Shown: positions 23,901-46,484 of the stretch, piece after piece
Layout: every line of letters starts with the position of its first letter
How positions within the stretch are numbered: position 1 is the stretch's first letter
Assembly (NCBI GenBank): GCA_017938885.1
Contig: JAGBAS010000093.1
Span: 3,190 to 67,189 of the forward strand
From: Clostridia bacterium
GTDB taxonomy: Bacteria > Bacillota > Clostridia > Oscillospirales > CAG-272
Direction: 5' to 3'
Length of the DNA stretch: 64,000 nt
The notes under the pieces: model-generated
What the model saw: only the letters and a program-made list of their open reading frames with translations
Databases searched by the model: none
What the model was told of the DNA's origin: nothing
Position numbers and translations under genes: made by a program

Positions 23901-24460
23901 AAAGCGGCGTCATGAACTGTGTTGGTATTGTTACCGCCGGATACGCTGCCTGCAGGCATGATCTTCATAGAATACAGATTGGGACCATCGCATCCCATGG
24001 TGACGCGGATCGTATGCTTGCCTTGGGAAAAATTAACTTGCGCATGCGACGAATCGCACCAGGTTCGCCAGCCGCGACCTGCGATTGTATTTTGCAAACG
24101 GATCGGCTCGCCGCCGTCCACGGAAATGTTATAGGTGCCTGTCTTATCAAGCCACCCGAAGGAGAAGCACAGATCATAATCCCCTGCCATCTCCACATTG
24201 ATTTCAAATTCAAAAAAGTCCCCATTGCGTACACCGTCAAAATATGCGGGGCCCATGGATTTTTCAAGATAAAGATTGCCGCCGAAAGCGGTGCCCTTAT
24301 CGTCATCGGTAAAAATCTCACCGAAGACGATTTCGGTAGTTTGTGAGCCGCTGACCGAAGTCGCGTCTTCCGCGATGACGGGCAGAACGGCGAAATTGCT
24401 CATGATGAGCAAAACGGCCAGAGTTGCTGCCAGAATTCGTTTAAAATTTAGCTTTTTCAT
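20987..24460 (-). CDS. Secreted multidomain glycosidase-like protein: CBM6/35-like module, repeated beta-sandwich modules, TIM-barrel-like domain paralogous to 4671-7937, C-terminal GCKS-TM-RKKKE anchor
   Basis: Signal peptide MKKLNFKRILAATLAVLLIMSNFAVLPVIAED. CBM-like segment: FGEIFTDDDKGTAFGGNLYLEKSMGPAYFDGVRNGDFFEFEINVEMAGDYDLCFSFGW...GKHTIRV. The paralog motifs are listed under 4671-7937. The C-terminus is KKKGCKSSVAVGGLVVVAVMGASALTLRKKKESEV. Confidence 0.8.
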   Translation of the reverse strand: MKKLNFKRILAATLAVLLIMSNFAVLPVIAEDATSVSGSQTTEIVFGEIFTDDDKGTAFGGNLYLEKSMGPAYFDGVRNGDFFEFEINVEMAGDYDLCFSFGWLDKTGTYNISVDGGEPIRLQNTIAGRGWRTWCDSSHAQVNFSQGKHTIRVTMGCDGPNLYSMKIMPAGSVSGGNNTNTVHDAALQDENSSAGAKVISSNAAIQFNCTATFFALDLASASWNNNIGSLRLSLYKWDTSYDKTLKGEPLASKDYIDFPDNTVLTFSFDDMEAGEYLLYIKNISVNSAEEVGSWGNEKPRENVRSYHADAISDFCPAVWLKYRSDAEAPFGPISDVDPNAVELAPSESDFYPWGDTVEYKMNADAKYGVQFKATKAFGGCEVFIPTVPTGDNTLTLSLYKWDGNYSQSVKGQPLAKAALSNVSRSSWATLSGEFAAGEYLFVVSGGTEGMTVAMVEQASDKANHYLYTSKAGISLVARTVGNAEVTVPTAPTAQDFITDDSVYWVGTDGLDRVLPNASETGEKREGKYVGIFYHTWHSAFAYRDVINVTELLKQYPEAKNDFYHPAWNGQTNCFWNEPLWGYYNNGIDRWVLRKQAELLADAGVDVVFFDNTNGTMNFIDAILTLCEVWAEARADGVKTPQISAMLNMYAYNETAIQIKELYDKIYSKGLYQDLWFYWEDKPLLLGYPEELKKLEGGKEAYEFFSYRPINPSYNENQELIKESDVSDRITFAPPAGFRRYTQWKWISVYPQEKMYLRGTKDVEEMCVCVAQNWSDKQGLTPMNAGDMVFGRGYTNKYGVNTSDEAVMAGLNIAEQWEYVLEVDPTFVYITGWNEWQVGRTTDMWGYPNALPDNATDGYSRDIEPSTGMLKDHFYNQMVSYIRKFKGMDSQPVSSGAVKVDSAASIDWSAVTPVYRAYEGNTLHRDYDGYKDYHYTNTTGRNDFVESRVTYDAENLYFMVKTAEDITPYTNKAWMRLFIDVVGVEDDKSWETFEYMLNRENPTADKATLERSTGGWNWEKAAEVAYTVSGDTMVVTIPRSALGIGEGDFTVNFKWSDNMQKDGDIMEFYVSGDVAPGERFKYSFTTLGAQAPGIETEPVESDTTVTPDTETPTEAPTDPTEPPKKKGCKSSVAVGGLVVVAVMGASALTLRKKKESEV

Positions 24461-29897: not shown

Positions 29898-30047
29898 AGG
29901 CTGAATCCTTTCGTAGTGGATTTGTTGAAAAAATATCAAACGTATTGCTGTACAAATCAAGCTTCTTCTTACACATTGTAACATACTTTCGACTTGATTT
30001 CAAGATGTATCTTGTAAATGAAGCATTAGAATGACAAATATATTTGT

Positions 30048-30120
30048 ATTATACCATGGCCAACATTGCTCGTCAATCCGGTTTATTTTGCAAAAATCGT
30101 GTCGATATTTTACCTTTTCA
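30048..30120 (-). promoter_or_regulatory. Promoter plus conserved upstream operator of 28341-29897
   Basis: Minus strand: TTGACG (30071-30076), N17, TATAAT (30048-30053). It is preceded by GTAAAATatCGACACgATttTtGCAAaAtAAACcGGA, which matches 27342-27385. Confidence 0.65.
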
Positions 30121-30377
30121 AAATTATATGCCATTCTTAATTTCATGCATAAATTGATAATTGATTGTATCAGAACGCCCCCGCCCCCGTCAAGCGTTAC
30201 AGGGGGAAAAAGTATCGCTGAAAATTCATAGAGCCGATTTGGTTGACAGAAAAACTGTCTTTCAAATCAGCTCTTTTTTCATGACATGACTGCAATACTT
30301 TTTCCTTTTTCCCTTGACGGCTTCGGTGGGTTTTGATGGTGGGAAGGTGTAAAGAGAGAATGGAGGAAAAGAATAGG

Positions 30378-30446
30378 TTGTGAAAAAGTTGTAATAGATT
30401 GTAAAAATTGTGAAAACTTGGAATTGGTTGAAAAGATGTGAAAGTG
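30378..30446 (+). repeat. Seven helically phased repeats of about 10 bp (TTGTRAAAAN), an A-tract array
   Basis: ttgtgaaaaag ttgtaataga ttgtaaaaa ttgtgaaaac ttggaattgg ttgaaaaga tgtgaaagtg, ending about 15 bp upstream of the -35 at 30462. Confidence 0.7.
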
Positions 30447-30461
30447 TTTAGGCTGGGTTGC

Positions 30462-30599
30462 TTGTTTTCGCTTTTAGAATCTGTTATAATGCAAGCACAT
30501 AGAAAATCGTGTAGCAGTGACAAGCCGCGATTTCCGCATAGGGACAGAGGTTGCACCAAGGGCGTAGTACGAATCCATCAGCCGTACTATGCCTTTTTT
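30462..30599 (+). promoter_or_regulatory. Promoter plus a leader of about 100 nt ending in an intrinsic terminator (candidate attenuator, riboswitch or sRNA)
   Basis: TTGTTT (30462-30467), N17, TGtTATAAT (30482-30490). Terminator GGCGTAGTAC (30561-70) / GTACTATGCC (30584-93) plus TTTTTT. A strong RBS and an ATG at 30632 follow. Confidence 0.55.
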
Positions 30600-30631
30600 C
30601 TATGCTCAAAAAAGAAAAAGAAAGGAGAAGA

Positions 30632-31138
30632 ATGACCACATTCGATCATAAAACATTGGTGAGCGGAGAAGTCAACCTACCATAACAGAATAAGCTGATC
30701 GATTTTTCCCGCGGCCCGTGTATTCCCGAAATCAAGAAGGCAGGCGCCGACGAATGGGTGCGGTTTCCCAAGGAAAGTGACATAGATATTTTGGGATTGG
30801 TTCATACCGATCTCTGTGGCGTAACCTTCGCGCTTTGCTCCGAGTGGATTACCGAGACCGAAGAAAAGATACGGGAGCTTCCCACCGAAAACCCATCGTT
30901 TTTTGAAGTTGAGGAGTATGAGGAGATAGCGGACGAGTATTTGGAGTATTCCTTTTTACTCCTCTATAAAAACGGCTGGATCGCGACACACGCGAAGCGA
31001 ACCCTCGCCGAACTTTACGCGGAAATTCCTTCCATAACGAAAAAGCATACGTTGCATGAGTCAGAGACAAGCCGCAACGACAAATCATCCTATAGACTTC
31101 GCTGTGAATACAAAAAGAGACGCGAGATATGGGACTGA
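30632..31138 (+). pseudogene. Hypothetical acidic protein interrupted by an in-frame TAA
   Basis: aaaggagaagaATG gives MTTFDHKTLVSGEVNLP, then TAA (30683-30685). The same frame continues QNKLIDFSRGPCIPEIKKAGADEW into the 30758-31138 ORF of the track. Confidence 0.4.
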
Positions 31139-31232
31139 ACCGGCGAATACAAGACAGGATAGCCAAGAACATTGTGTAAGCTCTTTCCCCTTTATTCTTA
31201 CGAACGGTATTATTGTTTTTCGGAGGTAACCA

Positions 31233-31550
31233 ATGAAAGTAAAGATTTATTCAAGAAGCGTAATGGAAAAGCTGCTTGCGGCAGGTAGGATTGAAAATGC
31301 CGCCATCATCAGCTTTCACGATCCCGTCGGTTGCGGGCGCAGACGGCTCGAAGACTACAGTCCCATTGACTTTTCGGGTAAGTGCGACCGTGTGATGCAG
31401 ATCGCCATTCACGATCTTGATCCCGAGGCACTTTCGGATTTCGGTCTGACGGTAGAGTCCTATTTTCCCGAAGCCGAGGGATTGCGGTTTTCACGGATTA
31501 CCGATACTATCCCAATCAGCTTGTGTATCATAAGGTATTTGACGCCTTAG
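31233..31550 (+). CDS. Hypothetical protein
   Basis: GGAGG RBS 7 nt upstream. 105 aa, with no family recognised with confidence. Confidence 0.45.
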   Translation: MKVKIYSRSVMEKLLAAGRIENAAIISFHDPVGCGRRRLEDYSPIDFSGKCDRVMQIAIHDLDPEALSDFGLTVESYFPEAEGLRFSRITDTIPISLCIIRYLTP

Positions 31551-31853
31551 AGAAATACAGGGCAGACCATATTGGGCACAAAGAACAAAGTTCCAAGTAA
31601 AGAGCATCATCTGTCACGCGTGAAAATCTTTGACCAAACGCAAGGCAACGTCGGCGATCTGCTGAACCGTACTACGGTGAATTGAAGTAACGCACAATGT
31701 GGGTGGGCAAAGGCGGTCTTATTGAAATCTTGTGATGTGCTCAACAGTCTTGAGGATCTTTGTCAAAATGATTTTGCGGAAATTATGATGAAGGTCAACG
31801 CGGTTGTGTGGGCACATGTGGAGTTAACTAATGTTTGTTACGGCGATCCATAG

Positions 31854-31906
31854 AAAAAGGCCCGAACCGAACAAATCACGTTCGATTCGTGTCCTTTGTG
31901 GCGGAG
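31854..31906. repeat. Hairpin+GGCGGAG module (g)
   Basis: ggcccgaaccgaaca / cgttcgattcgtgtcc hairpin with A/T-run flanks, then tggcggagatggag. Confidence 0.6.
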
Positions 31907-32014
31907 ATGGAGAGATATTGAACCTCCTCGCTCCGCTCGGGGCAAGCCGCCCCGGGGCTTATCTTCAACCGATTTCTCTTGCGGCTTGCAGAGATTTCAA
32001 GCGGCTCCCCAGCC

Positions 32015-32100
32015 CCGCCAATAAAAAAGACACCGACGAGCGGTGTCTTTTTTATTGGCGGAGGGAGTGAAACGTAAAACGACCCTTTTTGAATCATCTA
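32015..32100 (-). repeat. Hairpin+GGCGGAG module, subtype 2 (h): perfect 21-bp inverted repeat plus conserved 3'-UTR box
   Basis: ccgccaataaaaaagacaccg-acgag-cggtgtcttttttattggcgg (32015-32061), then agggagtgaaacgtaaaacgaccctttttgaatca. It lies about 70 nt downstream of the stop of 32171-38854 and works as a bidirectional terminator. Confidence 0.7.
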
Positions 32101-32170
32101 CATTCCACACCTCCGCTCAAACCCGCAGGGACAAGCCTCACAGGTCATACCGGCATTCGGAAGCCTTGCG

Positions 32171-35100
32171 TCAGGCTCGTTTCAAATAATAACCCTTGTA
32201 GGTGGTGACCATAGCCGTCGCTGCGCTTGCAGGATCGGACAACAGCGCGCTATCAATGGCCGTACCGCTCGTCGCGGTGGAGGAGGAGGTATACCACCAG
32301 CCCTCGGTGGTCTCAAAGCGGATCTCGGTCAACGCCGAGCAGTTGGCAAAGACGTTATAGCCAAACTTGACCACGCTGGCGGGAATGGTGATCGAAGTCA
32401 GCGCCTTGCAGTTGTAGAAGGTGCCGTTCTCCAGTGCCGTCACGCCCGCAGGGATATTCACCGTGGTCAGGGATGTACAGCCCGAGAAGGCACTCTCGCC
32501 AATGCTCACGAGTCCTTCGGGGAGGGTGATCTCGGTGAGGGATGTACAGTTTCTGAACGCATGCTTTCCGATGGAGGTAACGGTACTCGGGATGGACACC
32601 ATTGCGAGGGACTGGCAGTTGTCGAATACGCCCTCGGCAATACTCGTGACTCCCTCGGGGATGAGAATGGCGGTCAGCTTTCGACAGTCGTACAAGAGGT
32701 TGTATTCCAGAGCCGTCAGACTTGCGCTGAGCTTGACAGACTCCAGGGACCGACAGGTCGCAAAGGCGGAGGAGCCGATGGAGGTGACCGAATCGGGGAT
32801 CACGATCTCTCGGAGCTTGGTGTTGTTGAACGCCGAGGATCCGATGGTGAGAAGCCCCTCGGGGAGCGTCACCCGCTCCAGAGCGGTGCAGACATAGAAT
32901 GCGTTACCTCCCACAGAGGTCACACCGACGGGAATGGCGATCTCGGTCAGGCTCGTACAACTGTCAAAGGCGTTATTGCCGATGGAGGTCACCCCGTCGG
33001 GAATGATGATGGACGTCAAGGCCTTACAGGATCTGAAGGCGCTCGCGCTGATGGCCGTGATGTTTTTGCTGAGGGTAACGTTTGCCAGCTTTTCGCAGTA
33101 AGCGAAGGCGTGCTCGTCGATCAGGGTCACGCTGTCGGGGATCACGATGGCGGTGAGGGACTTACAGCTATTGAACGCGCTGTAGCCGATCTTGATCAAG
33201 CCATCGGGCAGGTCGATGGAGGTGAAGGGACAGTTGTTGAAGGCGTACCGTTCAATGCTGATAAGGGTGCTCGGCAATGTGACCGAGGTAAGATCATAGC
33301 AGTATTGGAAGGCGTTTTCGGGGATGACGGTGACACCCTCGGGAATGGCGATGGAGGTAAGGGCATTGCACTTGTAAAACGCATATTTCCCGATGGTCCT
33401 GAGGGTACAGGGCAGGGTGATATCCGAAAGCAGGGTACACTCGGAGAACGCTTTCTCGCCGATGGTCACGAGTCCTTCGTGCAGGGTCAGGTCGGTGAGC
33501 TTGACACACTTTTCGAATGCGGCCTGTCCGATCTCGGTGACGTTCGCGGGGATCTCCAGAGAGGCAAGAGCGGAGCAGTTGGAGAATGCCCACGTGGGAA
33601 GCACTTTGACACCCGAGCCAATGGTAACACTCGTTAAAGCGTTGCAATCGCTGAATACACTTTGTCCTAGGGAGGTCACACTGTTGGGAATGACGATGGA
33701 AGAAAGTGCCTTACAGTAACGGAAGGCGTCCTTACCAATGGCAGTCACGCCCGCAGGGATCTGAATGCTCGCGAGGGCATGACAGCTGTTAAAGGCGGAT
33801 TCGTCAATGCTCGTCAGGGTCGCGGGGAGAGTCACCGAAGTCAACGCCTTACAGTTTTGGAAGGTGCTGCGCTGAATACTCGTAACTCCCTCGGGGATAA
33901 CGATCTCGGTCAGCACCGAGCAGTTGTTGAAGGCGTATGACCCAATGGAGGTAAGGGTGTCGGGGAGCCGGACGCTCGCGAGCTTGCTACAGCCGTTGAA
34001 GACCGATTGACCGAGGCTGACGAGACCATTGGGAAGGATTACGGCGGTCAGCGCGGAGCAGTTGGAGAAGGCTTCATAGCCGATGCTTTCAAGACCCTCG
34101 TTGAACACGATGGATCCCAACGCGCGGCAATCCGTGAAGGCCCTTTGACCGATACTGCGCACGCTTGCGGGGACGGTGACGGTCGTCAGCGCCCTTGCGC
34201 TACTGAACGCGTAGTCCGAGATGATCGTGAGGCTTTCGGAGAGGGTGATCCTCTCCAGAGCGGTACAGCCGTAGAAGGCGTAGGCATCCATAGAGGTAAT
34301 GCTGTCGGGAAGGATGATCTCGGTGATGCGGGAGCAGCCCGAGAAGGCGGAATAAGACAGATTGGTGAGATTTTCGGAGAGGGTGATCTTCTCCAGCGCG
34401 CTACAGCCGTTGAAGGCGTGGCCCTCCATGAAGGTAATGCTGTCGGGAAGGATGACCTCGGTGATGAGAGTACAGCCATAGAACGCGTGGTATGCCAGAG
34501 TGGTCACCGCCGCTCCATTGTAGGTGGCGGGGAGCAGGATCCTCGACGGCATATCGTTCTTGCTCTTCATCTTGATGGAGTAGGTGCCGTCGGCAAGCTC
34601 TGTAAAGGTGAAGTAATCCGAGTGAGTCAGTCCACAGTATACGCAGTTGCCGCCCTCGTATTCGTGATCCCTGACCTCCACAAAGCTGTCCACGCGCACG
34701 TCGCCGCAAAGGTTACAGGTGTGGGTGGTGTAGCCTCGCTCACCGCAGGAGGCAGGAGTGACAACGGCCGTATAAGTGTGCCCCGTGGCAGGGATCGTCT
34801 GCTGAGCGGCGAGGACTTCGCCGCAGACCGAGCATTTCTTGCCGGCGGTCAGACCGGAGGCGGTACAGGTAGCGTTCACGGCGGGGATGATCTCTTCGGT
34901 GTGGCCAAGAGCCAATACGGTGTGCTGTGTTTCAAGAACCGCATGGCAAACCGAGCATTTCACGCCCTCGGTCAGTCCCTCCTCAGTACAGGTAGGCGCG
35001 ACGGCGGGGATGGTTTCATGGGTATGACCCGTTGCAGGGACGGTCTGCTGCGCGGTGATGATCTCGTCGCACACCGAGCATTTCGTGCCCTCGGTCAATC

Positions 35101-38100
35101 CCTCCTCGGTGCAGGTGGAGGCTACGGCGGGGATAACAACCTCGGTGTGACCCGTGGCGGTCACCTCGCTGTCGGTGTAGGCATGACCGCAGACCGAGCA
35201 GGTATGGGTGGTGTAGCCGCCCGTGGTACAGGTGGGAGACATCACGACAGAGCCGTAGCTGTGTCCCGTGGCGGGGATCCGTCCCTGGGAGGTGAGGATC
35301 TCACCGCAGACCGCGCACTTCACGCCCTCGGCAAAGCCGTCCTCGGTACAGGTGGGGGGAACGGCGGTCAGGGTCTGCTCGGTGTGTCCCTTGGCGGCGG
35401 TTTGCCCGTCGGTGTACATATGGCCGCATACGGAGCAGGTATGGGTGGTATAGCCGCCCGCCGTACAGGTGGGTGCGGTTACAACGCTTTGGTAATCGTG
35501 CCCCTTAGCGGGAACGGATTGCTGAGCCGTAAGAATCTCGCCGCAAACAGCGCATTTTTCGCCCTTGGTAAGACCCGCTTCGGTACAGGTAGCGTCAGCA
35601 GCGGGGAGGACTGCGGGAGTATGCCCCTTGGCGGGTACGATCTGTTGTGCGGTGATGATCTCATCGCATACCGAGCATTTGATGCCCTCGGTTAGTCCCG
35701 TTTCGGTACAGGTCGCCTCCATAGCGGGAAGCGTCTCGTGTGTGTGTCCCGTAGCATTCACACGGTCATCCGTGTAACGATCGCCGCAGGTACAGGTATA
35801 TGTGGTATACCCTTCAGCCATACAGGTGGGGGCGGTGATCGCGGCTTCGTAGGTGTGCGCAAGCTTAGGGATCTCTTTGGCTTCAACGTGTCCGCAATGC
35901 TCGCAGTCTCGTTTGCTTTGACCGAGCTCTGTGCAGGAGGGAGCTTTGAACTCATACCATTCCCCAAACTCATGGGGAATTCTATCTACGTAATTACCTA
36001 TGTACGAGTCACCGCATTCGCTACAGGTGTAGGTAGTATAGCCCCGTTCCGTACAGGTAGGAGGTGTTATGACAGCGTCGTAGGTATGGCTCAGCATACC
36101 GATGATCTCGGTCTCAAAGTAATCGCAATAGGCGCAATCGCGTCTCTTTTCGCCGTTTGAATCATAGGTAGGCGCAACCGTTTCTCTCCATTCACCCATG
36201 GCATGGGGAACGGTATTCGTATAATCCGCCACATAATGGTAGCCACAGGCACAGGTGTAGGTGGTATAGCCCTGCGCGGTACAGGTGGGAGCGGTCACAA
36301 CGGCGGCATAGCTGTGTCCCGTTGCGGGCGTATGCTCGCCAACGTAACTGTCGCCGCAAGCACAGGTATAGGTAGTATAGCCATCTGCCGTACAGGTGGG
36401 GGCGGTCACCACGGAATCATAGCTGTGTCCCGTGGCGGAAACCATCGTCTGCGCGGCGAGAATCGCGTGACAAACGGAGCAGTGCTTGCCCTCGGTCAGT
36501 CCCGTCTCGGTGCAGGTGGGAGCCACGGCGGCGTCGATCACCTCGGTGTGACCCGTAGCGGCTACCGTCTGCTGTGCCGCAAGGACTTCGCCGCAGACCG
36601 AGCATTTTTCGCCCTCGGTCAAGCCCGTCTCGGTACAAGTGGGCAGAACGGCAGGGATGGTCACCTCGGTGTGACCCTTGGCGGGTGTCTGTCCGTCGCT
36701 GTAGGCATGGTCGCACTTGGTACAGGTGTGGGTGGTGTAGCCATTCGTGGTACAGGTGGGGGCGGTCACCACGGAATCATAGCTGTGTCCCGTGGCGGAG
36801 ATGGCCCGGAGCTCGGTCTTTCCGCACTTATTGCAGGAACGAACTCTGGTTCCTTCTTCGGTGCAGGTTGCTTCCTGAACGGTTTTCCATTTTCCGAACG
36901 CATGGCTACATTCAGGCTCGGACACTCCCGAAAAGTGCATGGTGGCGTTCAGGAGCGGATCATTATACAGCCCGATGTCGATTTGATTCCACTCTGCTTG
37001 GGTGCCGTCATAGTACACGTCGGTGAGGTGATCGGTGTTGAAGAAGGCGGCCTCTCCGATAGCCGTTACGCCGGCGGGAACAGAGATCTCAGTCATGGCA
37101 GGACAGTTCGAGAAGGCGTACTCGTCAATGAAAGTCAGGCTGTCGGGAAGGGTGACGGTTGCGAGGAGACTGCAATCCATGAAGGCATCATGACCGATGG
37201 AGGTCACGCCCTCGGGGATCGTGACGGACACTATGCGATCGCAATCGTAGAAGGCGTATTCCGGAATGGCGGTCAAGCCCTTGGACAGCTTGACGAATGA
37301 CATAGAGTAGCAAGCGTAGAACGCGTAGGCTCCGAGAGACGTGACGCTGTCGGGAAGGGTGATGAGGGGAAGGGCTTCACAATTCTGGAAAGCACCCTGT
37401 CCGACGTGGGTGAGGGTATCGGGGAGGATCACTCTGGTCAGGCTCGTGCAGAGGAAGAAGGCATTATATCCGATGGAGGTGATGCCCCTCGGGATCATGA
37501 CGGTTTTGATGCTCGCACAAACCGCGAAGGCCTGATCGCCGATGGCCGTCACGGTATCCCCCTTGGGGCTGACCGTGGGAATCACCACGACAGTATCCCT
37601 GCAAGTACCCATGCCGCTGACATAGCAGGTACCGTCGCCGTTGGAGGTGAATGCCAATCCGACCGAGGGAGACAGACTGAACTCCCCGCACAAATAGCAA
37701 ACGCCCTCAATAAATACGTGGTCAATGGCCGCGATCTGGCGGATCTCTATGGAACCGCAGGCAAGGCAGGAACGGGACGCCGAGCCCTCCTGACCGCAGG
37801 AGGGGGCCTTGACCTCGTGCCACTTGCCCATCTCGTGCCCCAGAGCGTCCACGTAGTTGCCCACGGTGGTCAAGCCGCAAACGCAGCTTCGGGTGGTGTA
37901 GCCCTGCTCGGTACAGGTGGGGGGCGTGACTACACTGGTGTATTTATGCCTGATACGGGGGGTAAAGTTACTCTCATAGGTATGCCCGCAGGTACAGGTA
38001 TAGGTGGTGTAGCCCACCGAGCTGCAGGTAGCGGGAGTTACCTCGGTTTGATACTGATGTTCTGTGGTCGGGGTGTAATCATCCCGATAGGTGTGTCCGC

Positions 38101-38854
38101 AGGCGCAGGTGTAGGTAGTATAGCCCTCGGTGGCGCAGGTGGGCTCTGTGACCGCCGTCTCGTACTGATGCCCTTCGGCGATGACGAAATCATCCCGATA
38201 GGTGTGTCCGCAGGCGCAGGTATAGGTGGTGTAGCCGTCCAGGGCGCAGGCGGGCGGGGTGACGGCGGTCTCGTACCGGTGCCCCGTGGCGGGGATGTAA
38301 TCACCCCGATAGGTATCCCCGCAGGCGCAGGTATAGGTAGTGTAGCCGTCCTGCGCACAGGTGGGCGGTGTGACCTCGGTTTCATACTGATGCCCCGTGG
38401 CGGGGATATAATCCTCCCGATACAGATCCCAGCAGTGGCATATGTAGGTGGTGTAGCCATCTTCGGTACAGGTGGGAGGCACCACCTGGGCGGTGTAGGT
38501 GTGTCCCGTAGCGGGCACGGAACGGGTCTCGGCCAGGTTACAAACCTGACAAACCGAGGACTCCTCTCCCGCCTCGGTGCAGGTGGCGGGCTTGGTCTCC
38601 GTCCACTCCCCCATGGTATGCCCGAGCCTGTCGATCAGCTCCAGCTCAAACTGCTGACAGCCCTCCACGGTGCACAGCTTGGCCCGCACGCCCTGGGTGG
38701 AGCAGGTCGGAGCCAGCACCTCCTGCCATTCGCCGAGGATATGCTCGTGCTCGGGAACTTCTACGTTGGGATCCGTCTCGTCACAAGCTGTAAGCGTGCA
38801 TAAGAAAAGCAACGCCGTCAGGATCATGCACAGCATCAAAAATTTCTTTTTCAT
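32171..38854 (-). CDS. Giant (2227 aa) lipoprotein: two blocks of about 33-aa His/Cys repeats alternating with two BspA-type leucine-rich-repeat blocks
   Basis: Lipobox LFLCTLTAC. About 28 repeats of two types: ATGH.Y..VVT.PTCT..GYTTYTC.CG and ATGHTE.I.AV.PTCTE.GLTEG.KCSVC. LRR units: IPEGVTSIG..AF..C..LTSVTLP..L. The C-terminal 80 aa or so are non-repetitive. Confidence 0.85.
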   Translation of the reverse strand: MKKKFLMLCMILTALLFLCTLTACDETDPNVEVPEHEHILGEWQEVLAPTCSTQGVRAKLCTVEGCQQFELELIDRLGHTMGEWTETKPATCTEAGEESSVCQVCNLAETRSVPATGHTYTAQVVPPTCTEDGYTTYICHCWDLYREDYIPATGHQYETEVTPPTCAQDGYTTYTCACGDTYRGDYIPATGHRYETAVTPPACALDGYTTYTCACGHTYRDDFVIAEGHQYETAVTEPTCATEGYTTYTCACGHTYRDDYTPTTEHQYQTEVTPATCSSVGYTTYTCTCGHTYESNFTPRIRHKYTSVVTPPTCTEQGYTTRSCVCGLTTVGNYVDALGHEMGKWHEVKAPSCGQEGSASRSCLACGSIEIRQIAAIDHVFIEGVCYLCGEFSLSPSVGLAFTSNGDGTCYVSGMGTCRDTVVVIPTVSPKGDTVTAIGDQAFAVCASIKTVMIPRGITSIGYNAFFLCTSLTRVILPDTLTHVGQGAFQNCEALPLITLPDSVTSLGAYAFYACYSMSFVKLSKGLTAIPEYAFYDCDRIVSVTIPEGVTSIGHDAFMDCSLLATVTLPDSLTFIDEYAFSNCPAMTEISVPAGVTAIGEAAFFNTDHLTDVYYDGTQAEWNQIDIGLYNDPLLNATMHFSGVSEPECSHAFGKWKTVQEATCTEEGTRVRSCNKCGKTELRAISATGHSYDSVVTAPTCTTNGYTTHTCTKCDHAYSDGQTPAKGHTEVTIPAVLPTCTETGLTEGEKCSVCGEVLAAQQTVAATGHTEVIDAAVAPTCTETGLTEGKHCSVCHAILAAQTMVSATGHSYDSVVTAPTCTADGYTTYTCACGDSYVGEHTPATGHSYAAVVTAPTCTAQGYTTYTCACGYHYVADYTNTVPHAMGEWRETVAPTYDSNGEKRRDCAYCDYFETEIIGMLSHTYDAVITPPTCTERGYTTYTCSECGDSYIGNYVDRIPHEFGEWYEFKAPSCTELGQSKRDCEHCGHVEAKEIPKLAHTYEAAITAPTCMAEGYTTYTCTCGDRYTDDRVNATGHTHETLPAMEATCTETGLTEGIKCSVCDEIITAQQIVPAKGHTPAVLPAADATCTEAGLTKGEKCAVCGEILTAQQSVPAKGHDYQSVVTAPTCTAGGYTTHTCSVCGHMYTDGQTAAKGHTEQTLTAVPPTCTEDGFAEGVKCAVCGEILTSQGRIPATGHSYGSVVMSPTCTTGGYTTHTCSVCGHAYTDSEVTATGHTEVVIPAVASTCTEEGLTEGTKCSVCDEIITAQQTVPATGHTHETIPAVAPTCTEEGLTEGVKCSVCHAVLETQHTVLALGHTEEIIPAVNATCTASGLTAGKKCSVCGEVLAAQQTIPATGHTYTAVVTPASCGERGYTTHTCNLCGDVRVDSFVEVRDHEYEGGNCVYCGLTHSDYFTFTELADGTYSIKMKSKNDMPSRILLPATYNGAAVTTLAYHAFYGCTLITEVILPDSITFMEGHAFNGCSALEKITLSENLTNLSYSAFSGCSRITEIILPDSITSMDAYAFYGCTALERITLSESLTIISDYAFSSARALTTVTVPASVRSIGQRAFTDCRALGSIVFNEGLESIGYEAFSNCSALTAVILPNGLVSLGQSVFNGCSKLASVRLPDTLTSIGSYAFNNCSVLTEIVIPEGVTSIQRSTFQNCKALTSVTLPATLTSIDESAFNSCHALASIQIPAGVTAIGKDAFRYCKALSSIVIPNSVTSLGQSVFSDCNALTSVTIGSGVKVLPTWAFSNCSALASLEIPANVTEIGQAAFEKCVKLTDLTLHEGLVTIGEKAFSECTLLSDITLPCTLRTIGKYAFYKCNALTSIAIPEGVTVIPENAFQYCYDLTSVTLPSTLISIERYAFNNCPFTSIDLPDGLIKIGYSAFNSCKSLTAIVIPDSVTLIDEHAFAYCEKLANVTLSKNITAISASAFRSCKALTSIIIPDGVTSIGNNAFDSCTSLTEIAIPVGVTSVGGNAFYVCTALERVTLPEGLLTIGSSAFNNTKLREIVIPDSVTSIGSSAFATCRSLESVKLSASLTALEYNLLYDCRKLTAILIPEGVTSIAEGVFDNCQSLAMVSIPSTVTSIGKHAFRNCTSLTEITLPEGLVSIGESAFSGCTSLTTVNIPAGVTALENGTFYNCKALTSITIPASVVKFGYNVFANCSALTEIRFETTEGWWYTSSSTATSGTAIDSALLSDPASAATAMVTTYKGYYLKRA

Positions 38855-38882: not shown

Positions 38883-39209
38883 TCAGGTTTTGCTCATACA
38901 TTCGATGCATAAGCCGTCCGTGTCGTGATAGCAGTCATCACATACCCGCCTTTGGCAGACGGGACAGCGGTTGACGTGCAGCAGGACCTCCTTGTTCGCC
39001 CGATCATACGCGCTTGCGTGGTCGCTCTGCCAGATCAACTCTCTTGCTTTTTGCTCCGACCTTGAGATAAAGACTTTCGCTTTGAACGGCGGCTTGTACG
39101 GATAGGTGATCCGGGAGACCTCACGCCCGCACAGGTCGCAAAAAAAAGTAAATCTGAATACCTCAAGCGTGGAGCCGTCCTCATACTTTTTCGTTACGGG
39201 TTCCAGCAT
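38883..39209 (-). CDS. Small cytoplasmic protein with four CxxC motifs (zinc-ribbon-like), 28 nt upstream of the giant LRR gene
   Basis: Start at MLEPVTKKYEDG (RBS aaagggggg). Motifs: CDLC, CPVC, CDDC, CIEC. No signal peptide. Confidence 0.6.
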   Translation of the reverse strand: MLEPVTKKYEDGSTLEVFRFTFFCDLCGREVSRITYPYKPPFKAKVFISRSEQKARELIWQSDHASAYDRANKEVLLHVNRCPVCQRRVCDDCYHDTDGLCIECMSKT

Positions 39210-39356
39210 TCTTTTCCCCCCTTTCATTACGGACATCATACTGTTCTCCCATTATATAGGATCTTGACGGTTCTGTGACCCTCCCGACGGGGGGGTAAGT
39301 GGGGGGGAGCAGGTTTTTTTCGCCGAAACGGGAGAAATATGATCGACTTCAGGCAG

Positions 39357-39399: not shown

Positions 39400-41793
39400 T
39401 TAGGGATCCTTGCGATGCCTTCCGTCGATCCGCTCGAACAGCTCGTTCTTGCTTCCGACACCCAGCTTCCCGTAGACCTTTCGTGTGTATTCCTTGACGG
39501 TGTTGACCGTGATACCGAGATAGTAGGCGATCTCGCTCTGCTTTCTGCCCTTGAGCAGCTCGCGCAGCACGTCCAGCTCGCGGTCTGTCAGAAGATTGAC
39601 CTCCTCCGTATCCCGCAGGATGCGGTCGATCTCTTCATCCGTGTAGCGCATGCGAACAATGATGGGAGGCGGGACGGTTGCCGTGCCCTCGGCGGGGACT
39701 GCGTCAGAGACGGCAGGGATGGGCTCGCGCTCCTTGCGGTTGCGTCTGAAAAGGAGCAGAACGCAGACGACACCAAGCACCGACACGGCAACCGACAGGA
39801 GCACAATGGGAAGGAGAGGAAAGCGGGGAGGCTCCTCGCCGGGAGGTGCCGTCGAAGGCGTGACAGGCTCGGTGGCGGGAGTTGAAGTCACTTCGGTATC
39901 AGGCAATATGACAGGCTCCGTATCCGGCGTTGTGACAGGCTCAGTTACCGGCGTTGTGACAGGCTCCGTTACCGGCGGCTCGGGGGGAGCCGTCACGGGC
40001 GGCACTTCGGTCTCGTTAAGACGGTAGCAGGCGTAATAGGTGACGTCGCCTGCGGTACTGTGCACCGCACCCTCCGCGATAGGCTCTCCCTCACCGTCAG
40101 CCGTGGCGAACCATCCCGAGAAGGTATAGCCCTCCTTGGCCTCTGATTCAGGGAAGAGGATCGGTGCGCCGAAGTCGCAGGACACCCTCGTTTCCGTCTC
40201 TCCCATCACAAAGGTGATCTTGTAGGTGTTGGGTGTCCAGACCGCGTACAGATCGACGTACTCGGTGCCGCCTCCTACGGAGAGCCGCGTATCGGGGGCG
40301 TAGTCCCCTCCGTCACCGAATTGCCAACGGTCGAAGGTATAGCCGTCCTTTTGGTATTCGGGAAGGGTGGGTATCTCGCCATAGCAGACCGTGACGGTAT
40401 CCTTTACCTCTCCGTCCACAAGGAAACGGTAGGTCATATCGGAACGGGCATTGTTGCCTGCGTGGAAAACGCCGTGGCGGTTATCAAAGCGGTTACCCGA
40501 GACGCCCTCCAAAGCATCGCCGTCGATCTCCACGCTGCCCTCCATATGCTTATAAGGATCGCCCAAGTGATTGGTTTCGGTCATGTAACAGTATTGATTT
40601 GCTTCGCTCGGCATCGCTTCTGTGCGACCTTCGCCGTGAAGGGCACATCCGAACAAGGAAAGGCGTTCCGCATCGTATTCCTTCATAGCAGGCGTGTTGC
40701 CCGACAAGGTGGAGAGAACCAGGAAGGTCTTGCCCACACCTCCGCTACCGAGCTCCGCTTGGTTTTCGGATATGTAAAGCGCGCCGCCGGATGCGGCAGT
40801 ATTGTTTGCGATCGTGCCGTTGACAACGGTAACGAGGTTATTGCCGTAATTCTCGTTCCAGATACCGCCTCCGTTCTCGGTTGCACGATTGCCCGAGATC
40901 ACACAGCCGTCCAGTACGCTTTCGGTGTAAGAAAGCGCAATGCCTCCGCCGTTTCTGGCTTGGTTATCGAAAACGTAACAGTTCTTCATATGGAGCGTTC
41001 CGCGCCCCACGTAGACACCGCCGCCCTTGGTCAGCGTGTCGGGATAGAAATTCTCAAAGCGGTTTCCGCTGATCTTGCAGCTTTCAAGGGTAACGGTCGC
41101 CTGATCTGCCCATATCGCGCCGCCGTAACCCGATACGTTGCGGGAAAGCTCGCAGTTTTTCATATCAAGAAAGATATTGCCCGCGCCGGAAAGATAAATC
41201 GCGCCGCCATAGCCGCCTGCGTTGGCGTTCAGCGAACAGTCCTCAAAAGAGACGGACAAACGGTGACCTACGCTGTCGGCAGAAGAATAAATGCCGTAGA
41301 CCGCGCCGCCGTTTGCCATACTGTAACCCGAAAAATCACAGTTTACAAAGGCTGCATCGACACAGCGGGAGAAAAATACCGCCGGGCGGATCTTGGTCGC
41401 CGTCATGATCTGTTTCCCCGTAAAGTCGGTTTTGTCGATGTCATTCACGCCCGCAAAGGTGATATTTTCAAAACGGATATGTATGGTATCCTGCTCGGAC
41501 GCGCCGCCCATCACAGCAAACGCGCCGCCCGAAAAGACAGCAGGCGTATTCTTACCGCTTTTAATGGTCACTCCCTTAGAAAGTGTCATCCCCATCGGGG
41601 AGTAGGCAAATTCGATATCGCCGACAAGGATCGTATCGCCCTCACTTGCATGATGAAGTGCCTCCTTCAGCTCTGACTCTGTGGTGATCAGCTTGGGCTC
41701 GGCGGCGAACGCTCCCGTGCTCATCGCCGCAAGCACTGCCGCGACTGCCCAGATCGTCAAAAAAACGCATATGACTGTTTTTTTACGGTTCAT
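39400..41793 (-). CDS. Type I membrane protein: signal peptide, beta-helix with GGA[IV][YW] (Pmp-like) repeats, two Listeria-Bacteroides (Flg_new) repeats, P/T linker, one TM helix, C-terminal cytoplasmic LuxR/GerE HTH
   Basis: Signal peptide ...STGAFA/AE. Seven NGGA/YGGAI-type motifs. GYTFDRWQF and GYTFSGWF. TM FPLLPIVLLSVAVSVLGVVCVLLLF followed by RRNRKER. The C-terminus is LTDRELDVLRELLKGRKQSEIAYYLGITVNTVKEYTRKVYGKLGVGSKNELF. Confidence 0.8.
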   Translation of the reverse strand: MNRKKTVICVFLTIWAVAAVLAAMSTGAFAAEPKLITTESELKEALHHASEGDTILVGDIEFAYSPMGMTLSKGVTIKSGKNTPAVFSGGAFAVMGGASEQDTIHIRFENITFAGVNDIDKTDFTGKQIMTATKIRPAVFFSRCVDAAFVNCDFSGYSMANGGAVYGIYSSADSVGHRLSVSFEDCSLNANAGGYGGAIYLSGAGNIFLDMKNCELSRNVSGYGGAIWADQATVTLESCKISGNRFENFYPDTLTKGGGVYVGRGTLHMKNCYVFDNQARNGGGIALSYTESVLDGCVISGNRATENGGGIWNENYGNNLVTVVNGTIANNTAASGGALYISENQAELGSGGVGKTFLVLSTLSGNTPAMKEYDAERLSLFGCALHGEGRTEAMPSEANQYCYMTETNHLGDPYKHMEGSVEIDGDALEGVSGNRFDNRHGVFHAGNNARSDMTYRFLVDGEVKDTVTVCYGEIPTLPEYQKDGYTFDRWQFGDGGDYAPDTRLSVGGGTEYVDLYAVWTPNTYKITFVMGETETRVSCDFGAPILFPESEAKEGYTFSGWFATADGEGEPIAEGAVHSTAGDVTYYACYRLNETEVPPVTAPPEPPVTEPVTTPVTEPVTTPDTEPVILPDTEVTSTPATEPVTPSTAPPGEEPPRFPLLPIVLLSVAVSVLGVVCVLLLFRRNRKEREPIPAVSDAVPAEGTATVPPPIIVRMRYTDEEIDRILRDTEEVNLLTDRELDVLRELLKGRKQSEIAYYLGITVNTVKEYTRKVYGKLGVGSKNELFERIDGRHRKDP

Positions 41794-42119: not shown

Positions 42120-42986
42120 ATGAGCATACCCAACACCCGACCTATGCTCCCCCGACCCTGCCGAAATGGCTCGCGAACAGCGAAGCTGTTCAGAAAATCG
42201 GGAGGTATAGAAGAGGTATTTGAGAATATGTATCCGCAAATCGTGCCCCGGGAGATTTTCGACCGCGTGCGAAGCAAGATCACCGCCAACAAGTACGGCA
42301 AGCTAAGCGTGGAGGTGGTCTACCTACTCCGTCACAAGCTCAAATGCGGTTACTGTGGCCAGCCCATCAGCGCAGAAACGGGTACATCCAAGACAGGAGC
42401 CAAAAAGCGCTACTACAAATGCTACGGTCGCAAAAATCACAACGGATGCCAAAAGTCCATGATGCGGAAGGATCAGCTTGAAAATCTGGTGGTATCCACC
42501 ATCATCGACGAGTTATCCAAGCCCAAGACCCTTGACCAGATCGTAGCCGGGCTTCTGGAGGAACAGGAACGGTACATCAAGGAACACTACATGCTGAACG
42601 TACTACTCCGCGAGCAGCGGCAAGTCGAAACCTCCATTGAGAACGTCATGGAGGCCATCGAGCGAGGTGTGATCACCAACACGACCACCAAGCGTTTGAA
42701 GGATTTGGAGGCGAGACAGGAAGAGCTTGACAGGCAGATCCTCATAGAGAGAAGCAAAAACGCAGTGAGGGTATCCGTCGAGGAAATCAAGATGTACTAC
42801 AAGGAAGCCTTGGCTTTGGAGGCCCAGATGCTCATTAACTATATCGTGAAGGAGATCGTCATGTACGATGACAAGATCGAAATCTTTTTCCATAAACCTA
42901 CACGGAACAGTCCCGATGAAAGTCGGGGCTGTTTTGTTTATAAGGGGCGGAATGAAAATTTCGATGTCCAGATATGGATCGTGTGA
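42120..42986 (+). pseudogene. Large serine recombinase lacking the N-terminal catalytic (resolvase) domain
   Basis: VFENMYPQIVPREIFDRVRSKI is the end of the recombinase domain. KCGYCGQPISAETGTSKTGAKKRYYKCYGRKNHNGC is the zinc ribbon, followed by a coiled coil. The first 25 codons or so look unrelated, and there is no Ser-nucleophile domain. Confidence 0.75.
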
Positions 42987-43508: not shown

Positions 43509-43600
43509 AAAAAAAGAACCCGAACCAAACAACAATGTGTTCGATTCAGGTCCTTTTTGTGGCGGAGGGTGTGAGACGTAAAACGACCCTTTTGAATCGT
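43509..43600 (-). repeat. Hairpin+GGCGGAG module, subtype 2 (i), in the 3' UTR of 43640-46330
   Basis: gaacccgaaccaaaca / tgttcgattcaggtcc hairpin with A/T-runs, then tggcggagggtgtgagacgtaaaacgacccttttgaatcg. Confidence 0.7.
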
Positions 43601-43639
43601 TTCCGTTTCCCGTCTCCTCATCCACCTCAACCGAGCGGA

Positions 43640-46330: not shown

Positions 46331-46375
46331 ACAGGATCCTTTCCCGCCGCGAGGGCGTGGGGATTTTTCTTGTCC

Positions 46376-46404
46376 ATTATATCAAATCATACCACGATTG
46401 TCAA
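46376..46404 (-). promoter_or_regulatory. Perfect-consensus sigma-70 promoter of 43640-46330
   Basis: The minus strand reads TTGACA-N17-TATAAT, about 45 nt upstream of the ATG at 46330. Confidence 0.7.
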
Positions 46405-46455
46405 GAGCAGCTCTGTTTTTTTGGTCACTTCCACCAGGAATTCTTTGGAAATCCC

Positions 46456-46484
46456 TTGACAAATCCCCCGTCTGTCGGTATAAT
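46456..46484 (+). promoter_or_regulatory. Perfect-consensus sigma-70 promoter of 46515-48662
   Basis: TTGACA (46456-61), N17 (aatcccccgtctgtcgg), TATAAT (46479-84). RBS gaaaggag at 46501. Confidence 0.7.

Follow-up and report, generated by a model that had tools for sequence, protein, structure and literature searches.

A His-Cys3 repeat related to IgA protease domains may form metal-joined stalks in an LRR lipoprotein of a Clostridia bacterium

Background

The closest described systems include the following two. The Periscope Proteins SasG, Aap, Rib and Sgo0707 have repeat units of 50-165 amino acids (reviewed in PMC9704523). The M64 IgA protease of Thomasclavelia ramosa (UniProt Q9AES2, PDB 9qa6) has two domains that were named ZBD1 and ZBD2 in one study (Ramirez-Larrota et al., PLoS Pathog 2025, PMC12237041) and CTD2 and CTD4, or 'metal-associated periscope domains', in another (PNAS 2025, PMC12415215). 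For ZBD1 and ZBD2, AlphaFold3 predicted His/Cys zinc sites and no disulfides (PMC12237041); in CTD2 and CTD4 the predicted zinc sites join the sheets, and CTD2 was a fully extended rod in SAXS (PMC12415215). The zinc-linked rods are predictions in both papers (PMC12237041, PMC12415215).

Here, we analysed a window of 64,000 nucleotides from a Clostridia bacterium (GenBank assembly GCA_017938885.1, contig JAGBAS010000093.1), which encodes an LRR lipoprotein with a His-Cys3 repeat.

Results and discussion

Anatomy of the lipoprotein

The translated open frame (Table 1) contains 28 full His-Cys3 units, as the original prediction had estimated, and in addition two half units ('caps'); they are arranged in two arrays, and after each array comes an LRR block of the BspA type. 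The signal peptide runs from MKKK through a hydrophobic stretch to L-T-A-C24 and satisfies the lipobox pattern [LVI][ASTVI][GAS]C; it is 100% identical in the orthologues L008 and L011 and has one residue changed in L013. The lipobox (LTAC, residues 21-24) is the sole anchor of the protein: other anchors are absent and no C-terminal anchor was found in the tail after LRR head 2. Cys24 is probably lipidated.

Table 1. Features of the lipoprotein gene and its flanks (window coordinates)
Feature	Position	Strand	Details
Promoter-like site	39279-39251		
Small upstream ORF	38883..39239	-	118 amino acids, or 108 from the ATG at 39209
Lipoprotein ORF	32171..38854	-	2227 amino acids
Signal peptide and lipobox	38783..38854	-	residues 1-24, MKKKFLMLCMILTALLFLCTLTAC; Cys24 is the predicted lipidated residue; from translation
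Stalk 1 (predicted)	37682..38755	-	residues 34-391; 9 units and half-unit cap (H379, C386, C389)
LRR head 1	36914..37681	-	residues 392-647; about 8 BspA-type (LRR_5) repeats of 23 amino acids
Stalk 2 (predicted)	34628..36913	-	residues 648-1409; 19 units and half-unit cap (H1397, C1404, C1407)
Variant joint	36014..36205	-	residues 884-947; stalk 2 unit 7 with Tyr897 in place of Cys1
LRR head 2 and C-terminal tail	32171..34627	-	residues 1410-2227 and stop; about 29 LRR_5 repeats of 23 amino acids
Terminator-like hairpin	31863..31889	-	about 280 nt past the stop codon; consensus match only, such sites being no more numerous than in shuffled sequence

The units come in three flavours (A, B and C, see below) in the order C C A A A A A A C in the first array (His at 38, 79, 118 and so on to 340) and C A B B A A C A C A B B A B A B B B A in the second (His from 651 to 1359). 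A half unit with the pattern H-x6-C-x2-C-G closes each of the two arrays. Ten metal joints are predicted for stalk 1 and 20 for stalk 2. The second array, thought earlier to end at residue 1290, extends to 1409, so that the second LRR block begins near 1430 instead of 1300.

The assignment of the LRR blocks to the BspA type was borne out: LRR_5 (PF13306) matched with an E-value of 1.1e-291 (950 bits, cut-off 27.7, nine stretches), and the 23-amino-acid spacing recurs about eight times in head 1 and about 29 times in head 2. Head 1 has capping segments at its N- and C-terminal sides, while head 2 closes in a PARCEL-like W-rich cap.

The small ORF upstream ends 28 nucleotides ahead of the start codon of the lipoprotein and encodes a protein with four CxxC pairs, no signal peptide and no Pfam family at threshold. 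Orthologous loci have it at the same place, with 97-98% identity, and it may be co-transcribed with the lipoprotein from the promoter-like site.

The His-Cys3 unit is conserved, common and uncatalogued

The period of the unit is 37 amino acids in type A, 39 in type C and 41 in type B, longer than the 33 or so initially given. Within the lipoprotein, all 28 units keep His, Gly, Cys2 and Cys3, and 27 of 28 keep Cys1, the exception being Tyr897. One His and three Cys per unit are thus correct, but the spacing is not fixed as had been claimed: Cys2 and Cys3 are arranged as CxC in ten type-A units, as CxxC in most others and as Cx4C in unit 1. Conservation is also high among 3,936 units of 120 homologues (His 95%, Cys1 96%, Gly 100%, Cys2 100%, Cys3 99%). 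A hidden Markov model of the unit scores 1164 bits on the lipoprotein ORF; because of this score and the 95-100% conservation of the His and Cys columns, chance is excluded.

The repeat had been described as two flavours plus a third variant. All three recur across the whole family with set lengths: type B always has 41 amino acids and CxxC, type A 37-38 and type C 39. Type A has a Tyr/Thr-rich face (GYTTYTC..Y..Y) and type B an acidic one. At the DNA level the units are less alike than anticipated: identity is moderate, the best pair reaching 82% and pairs of the same length having a median of 62%, and Tandem Repeats Finder (TRF) reports 76-85% matches over sub-arrays only.

Neither Pfam-A nor NCBIfam has a model that covers the unit, in line with the statement that it could not be given a domain name, and no solved structure matches it (best Foldseek E-value against the PDB 0.18, TM 0.21 or less). 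A relative does exist: among PDB sequences, a four-unit profile matched 9qa6_A, the T. ramosa IgA protease, with an E-value of 2.9e-8 at residues 852-982 and 1091-1143, and a single-unit profile matched it with 3.5e-4. These residues correspond to ZBD1/ZBD2 (CTD2/CTD4), and the profile matches identify the unit as homologous to these domains, its only described relative. As ZBD1 and ZBD2 are themselves only predicted, this does not match the repeat to a well-characterised family. The unit is very common but without an entry in domain databases, and the published record of it is confined to one enzyme. A classical zinc ribbon or rubredoxin, with two CxxC knuckles in one domain, was rejected: the unit has a single knuckle, none of the zinc-ribbon families of Pfam or NCBIfam reached threshold and Foldseek found no match.

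Predicted ligands covary across the joints between units

Ligand covariation was examined in about 7,900 homologous units altogether, in a first set of 120 homologues and a replication set of 115 additional cluster representatives (50% identity). In the first set, array-terminal units without a following H..C..C have lost Cys1 in 58 of 81 cases, against 1/114 where a cap follows and 80/3615 for non-terminal units (Fisher 2e-29). An additional His or Cys beside the His is found in 53 of 140 first units and in 133 of 3461 later array units (1e-34). Internal units without Cys1, mostly with Glu instead, are followed by a unit of the H-x-H type in 43 of 52 cases, against 49/3130 (2e-62; 26 proteins). 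The replication set gave p = 8e-25, 2e-44 and 1e-27 for the three tests; the sets consist of related proteins and the p-values overstate independence, yet the effect was replicated in the second set. Exceptions exist: about 28-36% of the cap-less terminal units retain Cys1, and some internal losses of Cys1 (to Tyr or Phe, including Tyr897) have no compensating ligand, thus not every joint obeys the rule. The lipoprotein itself does, with H36-x-H38 and C649-x-H651 in the first units of stalk 1 and stalk 2, respectively, and both caps present.

The covariation shows a putative site that spans neighbours: Cys1 comes from one unit, and the following unit contributes His, Cys2 and Cys3. This is indirect evidence for tetrahedral His/Cys sites that would bridge consecutive sheets. 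The initial suggestion of a mini zinc-knuckle was right in that a Cys3-His metal site is the best reading, but the site appears to lie across the joint rather than inside each unit.

The shared site also favours metal binding over disulfides. Disulfide-stapled beads, the other initial suggestion, would have disulfides within or between units that stiffen the rod with no metal, and the His in another role. The protein is extracellular and Cys-rich, and the Pfam family EGF_LMN_ATRN has cumulative weak matches on homologues; none of the matching stretches passes individually, however, and each unit combines an invariant His with three Cys, which is an odd number. Moreover, where Cys1 is lost the following unit offers a His in compensation, and either Cys or His serves as the first-unit ligand, which fits metal ligation; a His cannot stand in for a disulfide partner. 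The hosts are strict gut anaerobes. In the IgA protease no disulfides were seen, and a reducing agent was needed for monodispersity (PMC12237041). We therefore regard disulfide beads as very improbable, and an EGF-like or other disulfide-rich repeat was rejected on the Cys count, the lack of self-passing EGF_LMN_ATRN stretches and the His/Cys interchange.

Predicted structure and proposed stalks

AlphaFold2 models of two four-unit segments have mean pLDDT values of 95.1 (residues 958-1115) and 95.0. A pTM of 0.55 beside such high pLDDT would be compatible with a rod, and DSSP assigns three strands to each unit; such a check of a multi-repeat segment had been proposed with the original prediction. 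Confidence does not drop across the variant joint at Tyr897, where the unit that follows (H923) has no compensating His or Cys; this joint alone is left with three predicted ligands. The variant is kept in the orthologues L008, L009, L010 and L013.

We consider it probable that the protein is a two-storey lipid-anchored adhesin, with LRR heads on rods of metal-joined units. Its parts would follow each other from lipidated Cys24 over stalk 1 (nine units and cap), head 1 and stalk 2 (19 units and cap) to the large head 2. Each unit of 37-41 amino acids would be a small antiparallel beta-sheet of three strands that has little hydrophobic core, and a tetrahedral site for a metal, most likely Zn2+, would join successive sheets end to end: one unit would offer Cys1 from its PTC motif, which lies at the far end, and the next would offer the His of its GH start together with Cys2 and Cys3 of its C-x(1,2)-C knuckle. 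The first unit of each array would bring its own fourth ligand two residues before its His, and the half unit behind the last full unit would consume the last Cys1. On this scheme there would be 30 sites, of which 29 would have four ligands. Both the presence of a metal and its identity are presumed from the ligands; CxC knuckles, present in ten units of the lipoprotein, are atypical of zinc sites.

The thin rods would be spacers, about 35 nm (stalk 1) and about 70 nm (stalk 2) long if a unit measures about 3.7 nm, a value scaled from the T. ramosa IgA protease, whose ZBD1, with three subdomains, is about 110 Å long in the model. Head 1 would be brought through the wall on stalk 1, and stalk 2 would place head 2 far beyond it. 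The rigid-stalk role first proposed remains the best reading, although rigidity and lengths are themselves presumed; that the LRR heads act as adhesins is suggested by analogy.

An iron or other redox-active metal in rubredoxin-like Cys3His sites, serving surface electron transfer, metal storage or buffering and not structure, appears very unlikely. The unit profile weakly matches rubredoxin knuckles (E-values 0.06-0.1), but over the 12 residues of the CxxCG knuckle only, and while Fe2+ is present in anoxic gut contents and each molecule has 30 predicted sites, neighbouring sites would be separated by about 3.7 nm (on the scale of the same ZBD1 model), too distant for electron hopping. No redox partner gene adjoins the lipoprotein gene (Pfam, ORF list), and both IgA protease papers favour structural zinc (PMC12237041, PMC12415215).

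Distribution and evolution of the arrays

Orthologues in MAGs of the same genus, with matched segments 82-98% identical and a virtually identical signal peptide, have 28, 25 and 20 units (9+19, 8+17 and 9+11); such a comparison of repeat numbers had been recommended. They always differ by whole units, and keep the flavour order. Stalk length would evolve by gain and loss of whole units.

The source genome has 13 repeat-bearing ORFs, and in the seven with a readable layout the array adjoins the membrane anchor (for example lipobox-stalk-GH25, cohesin-stalk-TM, LRR-stalk-TM and lipobox-stalk-LRR). Across the family, arrays are combined with cohesin, dockerin, SLH, GDSL lipase, GH123, transglutaminase and LRR_5 domains.

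The arrays could be more than spacers: flavour-specific faces might bind a ligand, such as a glycan, or mediate metal-dependent self-association between cells, the stalk being secondary. The G5-E repeats of Aap show zinc-dependent self-association. That A, B and C recur family-wide at set lengths suggests selection beyond length alone, and the conserved flavour order of the orthologues points the same way. The many unrelated heads, and the position of the array on the anchor side wherever layouts are readable, are instead as expected for a generic spacer. Further roles of CTD2 and CTD4, likened to SasG and Aap, were left open (PMC12415215), but the ZBDs of the IgA protease are dispensable for substrate binding and catalysis (PMC12237041). 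A function beyond that of a spacer is rather unlikely in our view.

The module is present in 65 of 121 genomes of this order and in 6 of 300 others in the phylum sample. Metal-joined spacer stalks might even be zinc- and redox-gated: if each joint of the core-less sheets depended on one thiolate-bound metal, a shortage of zinc (imposed by host calprotectin, for instance) or oxidation would make the stalks of about 100 nm soften or collapse and so draw back the LRR heads, and adhesin display would respond to the environment among the strict anaerobes of this order. Such gating is speculative and we doubt it, but it would account for a module that is common in this order and rare elsewhere in the sample.

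Comparison with known systems

Like the Periscope Proteins, the lipoprotein is one chain, surface-anchored at one end, with a predicted rod of small all-beta units in tandem and a distal head; the sheets would be single-layered without a classical core, as in G5-E, and the repeat number varies among relatives. Its units are shorter (37-41 amino acids), however, and their stability is presumably metal-dependent. The variation in unit number was seen between species-level MAGs, and the units are 62-82% identical in DNA, unlike the 'highly identical repeats' of Periscope Proteins, which does not support rapid length switching at the strain level.

Both head blocks are canonical 23-amino-acid LRR_5 arrays as in BspA-type proteins (Pfam LRR_5, PF13306; NCBIfam HupY/LrrG-like), with a HupY/LrrG equivalog match far under the cut-off (375 versus 1250 bits). 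Unlike in those proteins, the heads sit on His/Cys stalks, two per chain.

With zinc ribbons, rubredoxin knuckles and C2H2 fingers the unit shares the CxxC(G) knuckle at a beta-turn and, presumably, a tetrahedral Cys/His site. It differs in having one knuckle per unit, with the site probably completed by the neighbour, and in forming long extracellular tandem arrays; profile matches to these families are short and weak (E-values 0.0025-1).

The closest likeness is to the ZBDs of the IgA protease, which are AlphaFold models, with SAXS for CTD2, and not solved structures: they have subdomains of about 35-40 amino acids, each an up-and-down beta-sheet of three strands, predicted His/Cys sites that would connect these sheets, a first subdomain that begins with H-T-H, as the first-unit rule predicts, and a position between functional head and cell anchor. 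The repeat of the lipoprotein is of this already noted but uncatalogued kind. The sortase-anchored protease, however, has only 3 + 2 subdomains, mostly His2Cys2, whereas the lipoprotein carries LRR heads and has 28 units and two caps, almost all Cys3His, in three flavours.

Architecture of the repeat arrays

The lipoprotein starts with a typical signal peptide, MKKKFLMLCMILTALLFLCTLTAC, and the lipobox L-T-A-C24 (both read from the translation). The presence of a His-Cys3 repeat array in this leucine-rich repeat (LRR) protein was the main claim of the original prediction and holds up after a few small corrections: 28 complete units, nine in residues 34-377 and 19 in residues 648-1393, are recovered alike by regex parsing, by MAFFT and by a unit-derived HMM. 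The unit has the pattern [A]-x-G-H - x(10-12) - P-T-C-T-x-x-G - x(5-6) - C - x(1,2) - C - G - x(8-11) and comes in three flavours: A (37-38 aa, GYTT[YH]TC(x)xCG..Y), B (41 aa, GLTEGxKCSVC..IL) and C (39 aa, H..GEW). The period is 37-41 aa rather than about 33 aa, and the coordinates proposed for array 2 and LRR block 2 were about 120 residues off. All 28 units of the lipoprotein keep the His, the Gly, Cys2 and Cys3, and 27 of them keep Cys1; the remaining one has Tyr897 instead. Right behind its final full unit, each array is closed by a half unit H-x6-C-x2-C-G, here called a cap (H379/C386/C389 and H1397/C1404/C1407); these half units had not been split out initially. The DNA identity between units, supposed to be high, is moderate (at most 82%, median 62%).

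Pfam detects LRR_5 alone in the lipoprotein (E 1.1e-291, nine stretches), and NCBIfam only LRR adhesin-like families far under their cut-offs, plus a C-terminal PARCEL repeat. The LRR repeats are 23 aa long and number about 8 in the first block and about 29 in the second; these heads are assigned from Pfam, and the AF2 models described below cover stalk segments. Other proteins have a comparable two-storey plan (stalk, head, stalk, head), the library homologs P0003 and P0135 alternating similarly. P0135 also has 2227 aa; at 34% identity, it was ruled out as being the window lipoprotein itself. The gene is an ordinary member of the His-Cys3 repeat family and its product is among the clearest long arrays of the unit.

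Features of the window around the lipoprotein gene
Feature	Positions	Strand	Description
Lipoprotein ORF	32171..38854	minus	2227 codons, open in translation
Tyr897 joint	36014-36205	minus	lipoprotein residues 884-947
Small upstream ORF	38883-39239	minus	118 aa (108 aa from ATG at 39209), 28 nt upstream of the lipoprotein gene
797-aa ORF	39400-41793	minus	farther upstream; Flg_new, Chlamydia PMP repeat, C-terminal GerE/LuxR helix-turn-helix
AT-rich stretch, ~2 kb	30000-32170		downstream, short ORFs only; GC 0.44 versus 0.56-0.59 in the lipoprotein gene
288-aa ORF	42120-42986	plus	~3 kb from the lipoprotein gene; recombinase zinc beta-ribbon as sole domain
1157-aa ORF	20987-24460	minus	no Pfam match at E<=0.001
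974-aa ORF	43535-46459	plus	no Pfam match at E<=0.001; overlapped by an opposite-strand 896-aa ORF, either may be the real gene

Family size and distribution

The His-Cys3 unit is a protein building block on a very large scale. A word-seeded homolog search with residues 640-1400 was saturated (7,981 of 8,000 scored candidates). A HMMER scan of all 1.84 billion cluster representatives with a 39-position unit profile found the unit in 59,512 proteins at E<=1e-3, in 34,472 at E<=1e-10 and in 10,745 at E<=1e-30, some of them with more than 70 units. At E<=1e-5 it is present in 65 of 121 genomes in an even sample of the window's order and in 7 of 301 in an even sample of the phylum; both counts are lower bounds because a single-unit search has limited sensitivity. 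MAGs filed as Eubacteriales or Clostridia bacterium are nearest to the genome, and two of these were recovered from roe deer rectum and goat colon.

The His and Cys positions are conserved among homologs: across 3,936 units of the 120 best homologs, the His is conserved to 95%, Cys1 to 96%, the Gly and Cys2 to 100% and Cys3 to 99%, and flavours A, B and C reappear with unchanged lengths. The homologs combine the unit with cohesin, dockerin, SLH, Flg_new, Big_2, GDSL lipase, GH123, transglutaminase-like and LRR_5 domains, a partner set typical of surface or secreted proteins. Neither Pfam-A nor NCBIfam has a model over the units. The Pfam labels that do appear on homologs (Auto_anti-p27, zf-Vps39_C, EGF_LMN_ATRN and DUF4907) add up tiny fragments, none of which passes alone, and were rejected as the family.

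A putative metal site across each joint

AlphaFold modelling of a multi-unit segment, also suggested at the outset, was done for four units (C, A, B, B; residues 958-1115), with an alignment made solely of four-unit segments from proteins of the same genome. The model has a mean pLDDT of 95.1, a pTM of 0.55 and three short predicted strands per unit. In such a three-stranded up-and-down sheet, His, Cys2 and Cys3 would lie at one end of the unit and Cys1 at the opposite end, near the His of the following unit. These positions suggest a shared site to which unit i gives Cys1 and unit i+1 the His, Cys2 and Cys3.

Three predictions of a cross-joint site were tested on the 120 homologs. First, a terminal unit should require its Cys1 only when a pairing element stands behind it: of 81 terminal units that no H..C..C element follows, 58 have lost Cys1, compared with 1 of 114 with a cap and 80 of 3,615 non-terminal units (Fisher 2e-29 for the terminal-unit test). 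For this test, arrays were merged and caps defined more loosely; a strict regex on fragmented arrays gave a weak signal (88/500). Second, the first unit has no upstream Cys1 and should supply a ligand of its own: an extra His or Cys beside the His, typically as C-x-H or H-x-H, occurs in 53 of 140 first units and in 133 of 3,461 later array units (1e-34). Third, Cys1 loss in an internal unit should be compensated by the next unit: an H-x-H-type unit comes next after 43 of 52 internal losses, which are mostly to Glu, versus 49 of 3,130 cases otherwise (2e-62; 26 different proteins). Each effect was seen again in a second set, 115 other representatives of 50%-identity clusters (p = 8e-25, 2e-44 and 1e-27). 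The p-values are inflated because the proteins are related; despite this kinship, the effect sizes are large and present in many separate architectures.

The rule would thus read as follows: Cys1 of one unit pairs with the His/Cys/Cys of the next, a C/H-x-H start would furnish the fourth ligand of the first site, the half-unit cap would consume the final Cys1, and a lost Cys1 (mostly Glu) would be made good by the H-x-H start of the next unit. The arrays of the lipoprotein start with H36-E-H38 and C649-S-H651 and both end with a cap; the protein follows the rule throughout, with the exception of the Tyr897 joint. Its predicted metal sites number 30, of which 29 would have four ligands.

Two natures had been proposed for the unit, a C3H zinc knuckle or a disulfide-stapled bead. 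Metal ligands can be interchanged and can be rescued from another position; disulfide partners cannot. Disulfide beads, in which the cysteines would staple each unit, are unlikely: Cys and His interchange in one structural role, which is incompatible with disulfides, and a lost Cys is rescued by a His from a different position. A metal clasp at each joint is therefore preferred. Of the zinc-knuckle proposal, the Cys3His metal site fits, but the covariation argues for sites common to neighbouring units instead of one within each unit. The metal is most likely zinc, judging from comparable structural Cys3His sites and from two papers on an IgA protease (PMC12237041, PMC12415215).

At the Tyr897 joint, Cys1 is replaced with no compensating ligand. 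This state is kept in four orthologs, and analogous P-T-[YF] units are present in unrelated homologs; such joints may represent a distinct, metal-poor type. A second AF2 model, across this joint, has equal confidence with no dip at the joint. AF2 hence does not predict a flexible hinge here, and the model neither supports nor refutes that idea.

Probable stalk role and paralogs in the same genome

The unit profile identified 13 unit-bearing ORFs in the genome. In seven, all those whose layout was readable, the array stands between membrane anchor and functional part, which fits the proposed role as a rigid stalk. The layouts include lipobox, stalk and GH25 muramidase; lipobox, stalk and LRR; cohesin, stalk, acidic linker and C-terminal helix; and, in two cases, LRR, stalk, linker and C-terminal helix. 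Scaled from about 110 A per three subdomains (PMC12237041), the two stalks of the lipoprotein would measure about 35 nm (stalk 1) and about 70 nm (stalk 2), and the distal head could, with the LRR solenoids included, stand about 125 nm off the membrane.

Contigs C127, C47, C57, C65 and C74 of the genome encode a fourth, shorter flavour of about 24-25 aa (G-H-x-P-G-x-x-A-D-C-x-x-x-Q-x-C-x-x-C-G-x-x-L). In several paralogs it alternates one-to-one with type-A units; the window lipoprotein lacks it. Repeat-bearing paralogs on C127, C47 and C74 end with an acidic Pro/Thr/Glu linker, G-C-x-[GS], a hydrophobic helix and a basic tail.

Orthologs differ by whole units

Comparing unit numbers across relatives, a further check suggested originally, revealed differences. 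Orthologs with a virtually identical signal peptide are present in MAGs of the same genus, with matched segments 82-98% identical. Written as array 1 / array 2, the window lipoprotein has CCAAAAAAC / CABBAACACABBABABBBA (28 units), the ortholog G005/L008 has CCxAAAAC / CABBAACABBABABBBA (25 units) and L011 has CACAAAAAC / CABBABABBBA (20 units); a fourth has 4 units plus at least 19 up to the contig end. All differences are whole units, so that every joint stays intact.

Neighbouring genes

The small upstream ORF has four CxxC pairs, looks cytoplasmic, is single-copy in the genome and has no Pfam family at threshold. A promoter-like site precedes it. Five orthologous loci have it at an unchanged position with 97-98% identity, which exceeds the conservation of the lipoprotein. 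The 797-aa ORF, with its odd domain mix, is possibly a membrane-spanning regulator, and the 288-aa ORF may be a serine recombinase remnant. Downstream, the AT-rich gap is followed by a GH123 gene, an AraC regulator and a CBM-bearing protein; these and the 797-aa protein are not evidently linked to the lipoprotein. Rfam has no match within the window, the AT-rich stretch included.

Comparison with known systems

A phmmer search of residues 640-1400 against all PDB sequences returned nothing relevant. Profiles did: the single-unit profile matches the Thomasclavelia ramosa IgA protease (9qa6_A) best, at E 3.5e-4, and with the four-unit profile the match reaches E 2.9e-8 and spans chain residues 852-982 and 1091-1143. 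The IgA protease was reached by profiles only, not by phmmer. Foldseek with the four-unit model found no match in the PDB at E<=0.001 (best E 0.18, TM <=0.21), so that 9qa6 apparently lacks a model of the zinc-binding domains (ZBDs).

The absence of a named domain, as first stated, holds for Pfam-A, NCBIfam and solved structures; the module was, however, noticed in 2025 in one IgA protease. Both papers on this enzyme present the zinc sites of ZBD1/ZBD2 (CTD2/CTD4) as predictions and do not describe the family beyond it (PMC12237041, PMC12415215). Literature searches found no general account of the repeat beyond this short appendage; the Periscope Proteins review (PMC9704523) is silent on the His-Cys3 repeat and the ZBD/CTD domains are not taken up in an EMBO J 2025 paper on M64 proteases. 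What our analysis contributes is the replicated covariation case for the cross-joint site, the start and cap rules and the ortholog unit counts.

About half of the order's sampled genomes carry the unit. It is missing from Pfam-A and NCBIfam and from solved structures. The cross-joint ligand rule offers a concrete, testable model of an extracellular metal-stapled rod, as well as a recipe for the domain boundaries of a family model, and helps with annotating the thousands of giant surface proteins in gut and rumen Clostridia that are labelled "hypothetical".

One criterion for Periscope Proteins is "highly identical repeats" (PMC9704523); the lipoprotein differs, since its unit DNA is only 62-82% identical, and fast strain-level switching is therefore not supported. 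The CTD2 of the IgA protease is a fully extended rod by SAXS and zinc pockets are predicted to join the sheets of its domains (PMC12415215). Its ZBD1 opens with H-T-H, like the H-x-H start of array 1 in the lipoprotein. Its array likewise sits between anchor and functional part (PMC12237041, PMC12415215). This anchor-side placement, here and in the IgA protease, supports a spacer or "periscope" role of the repeat.
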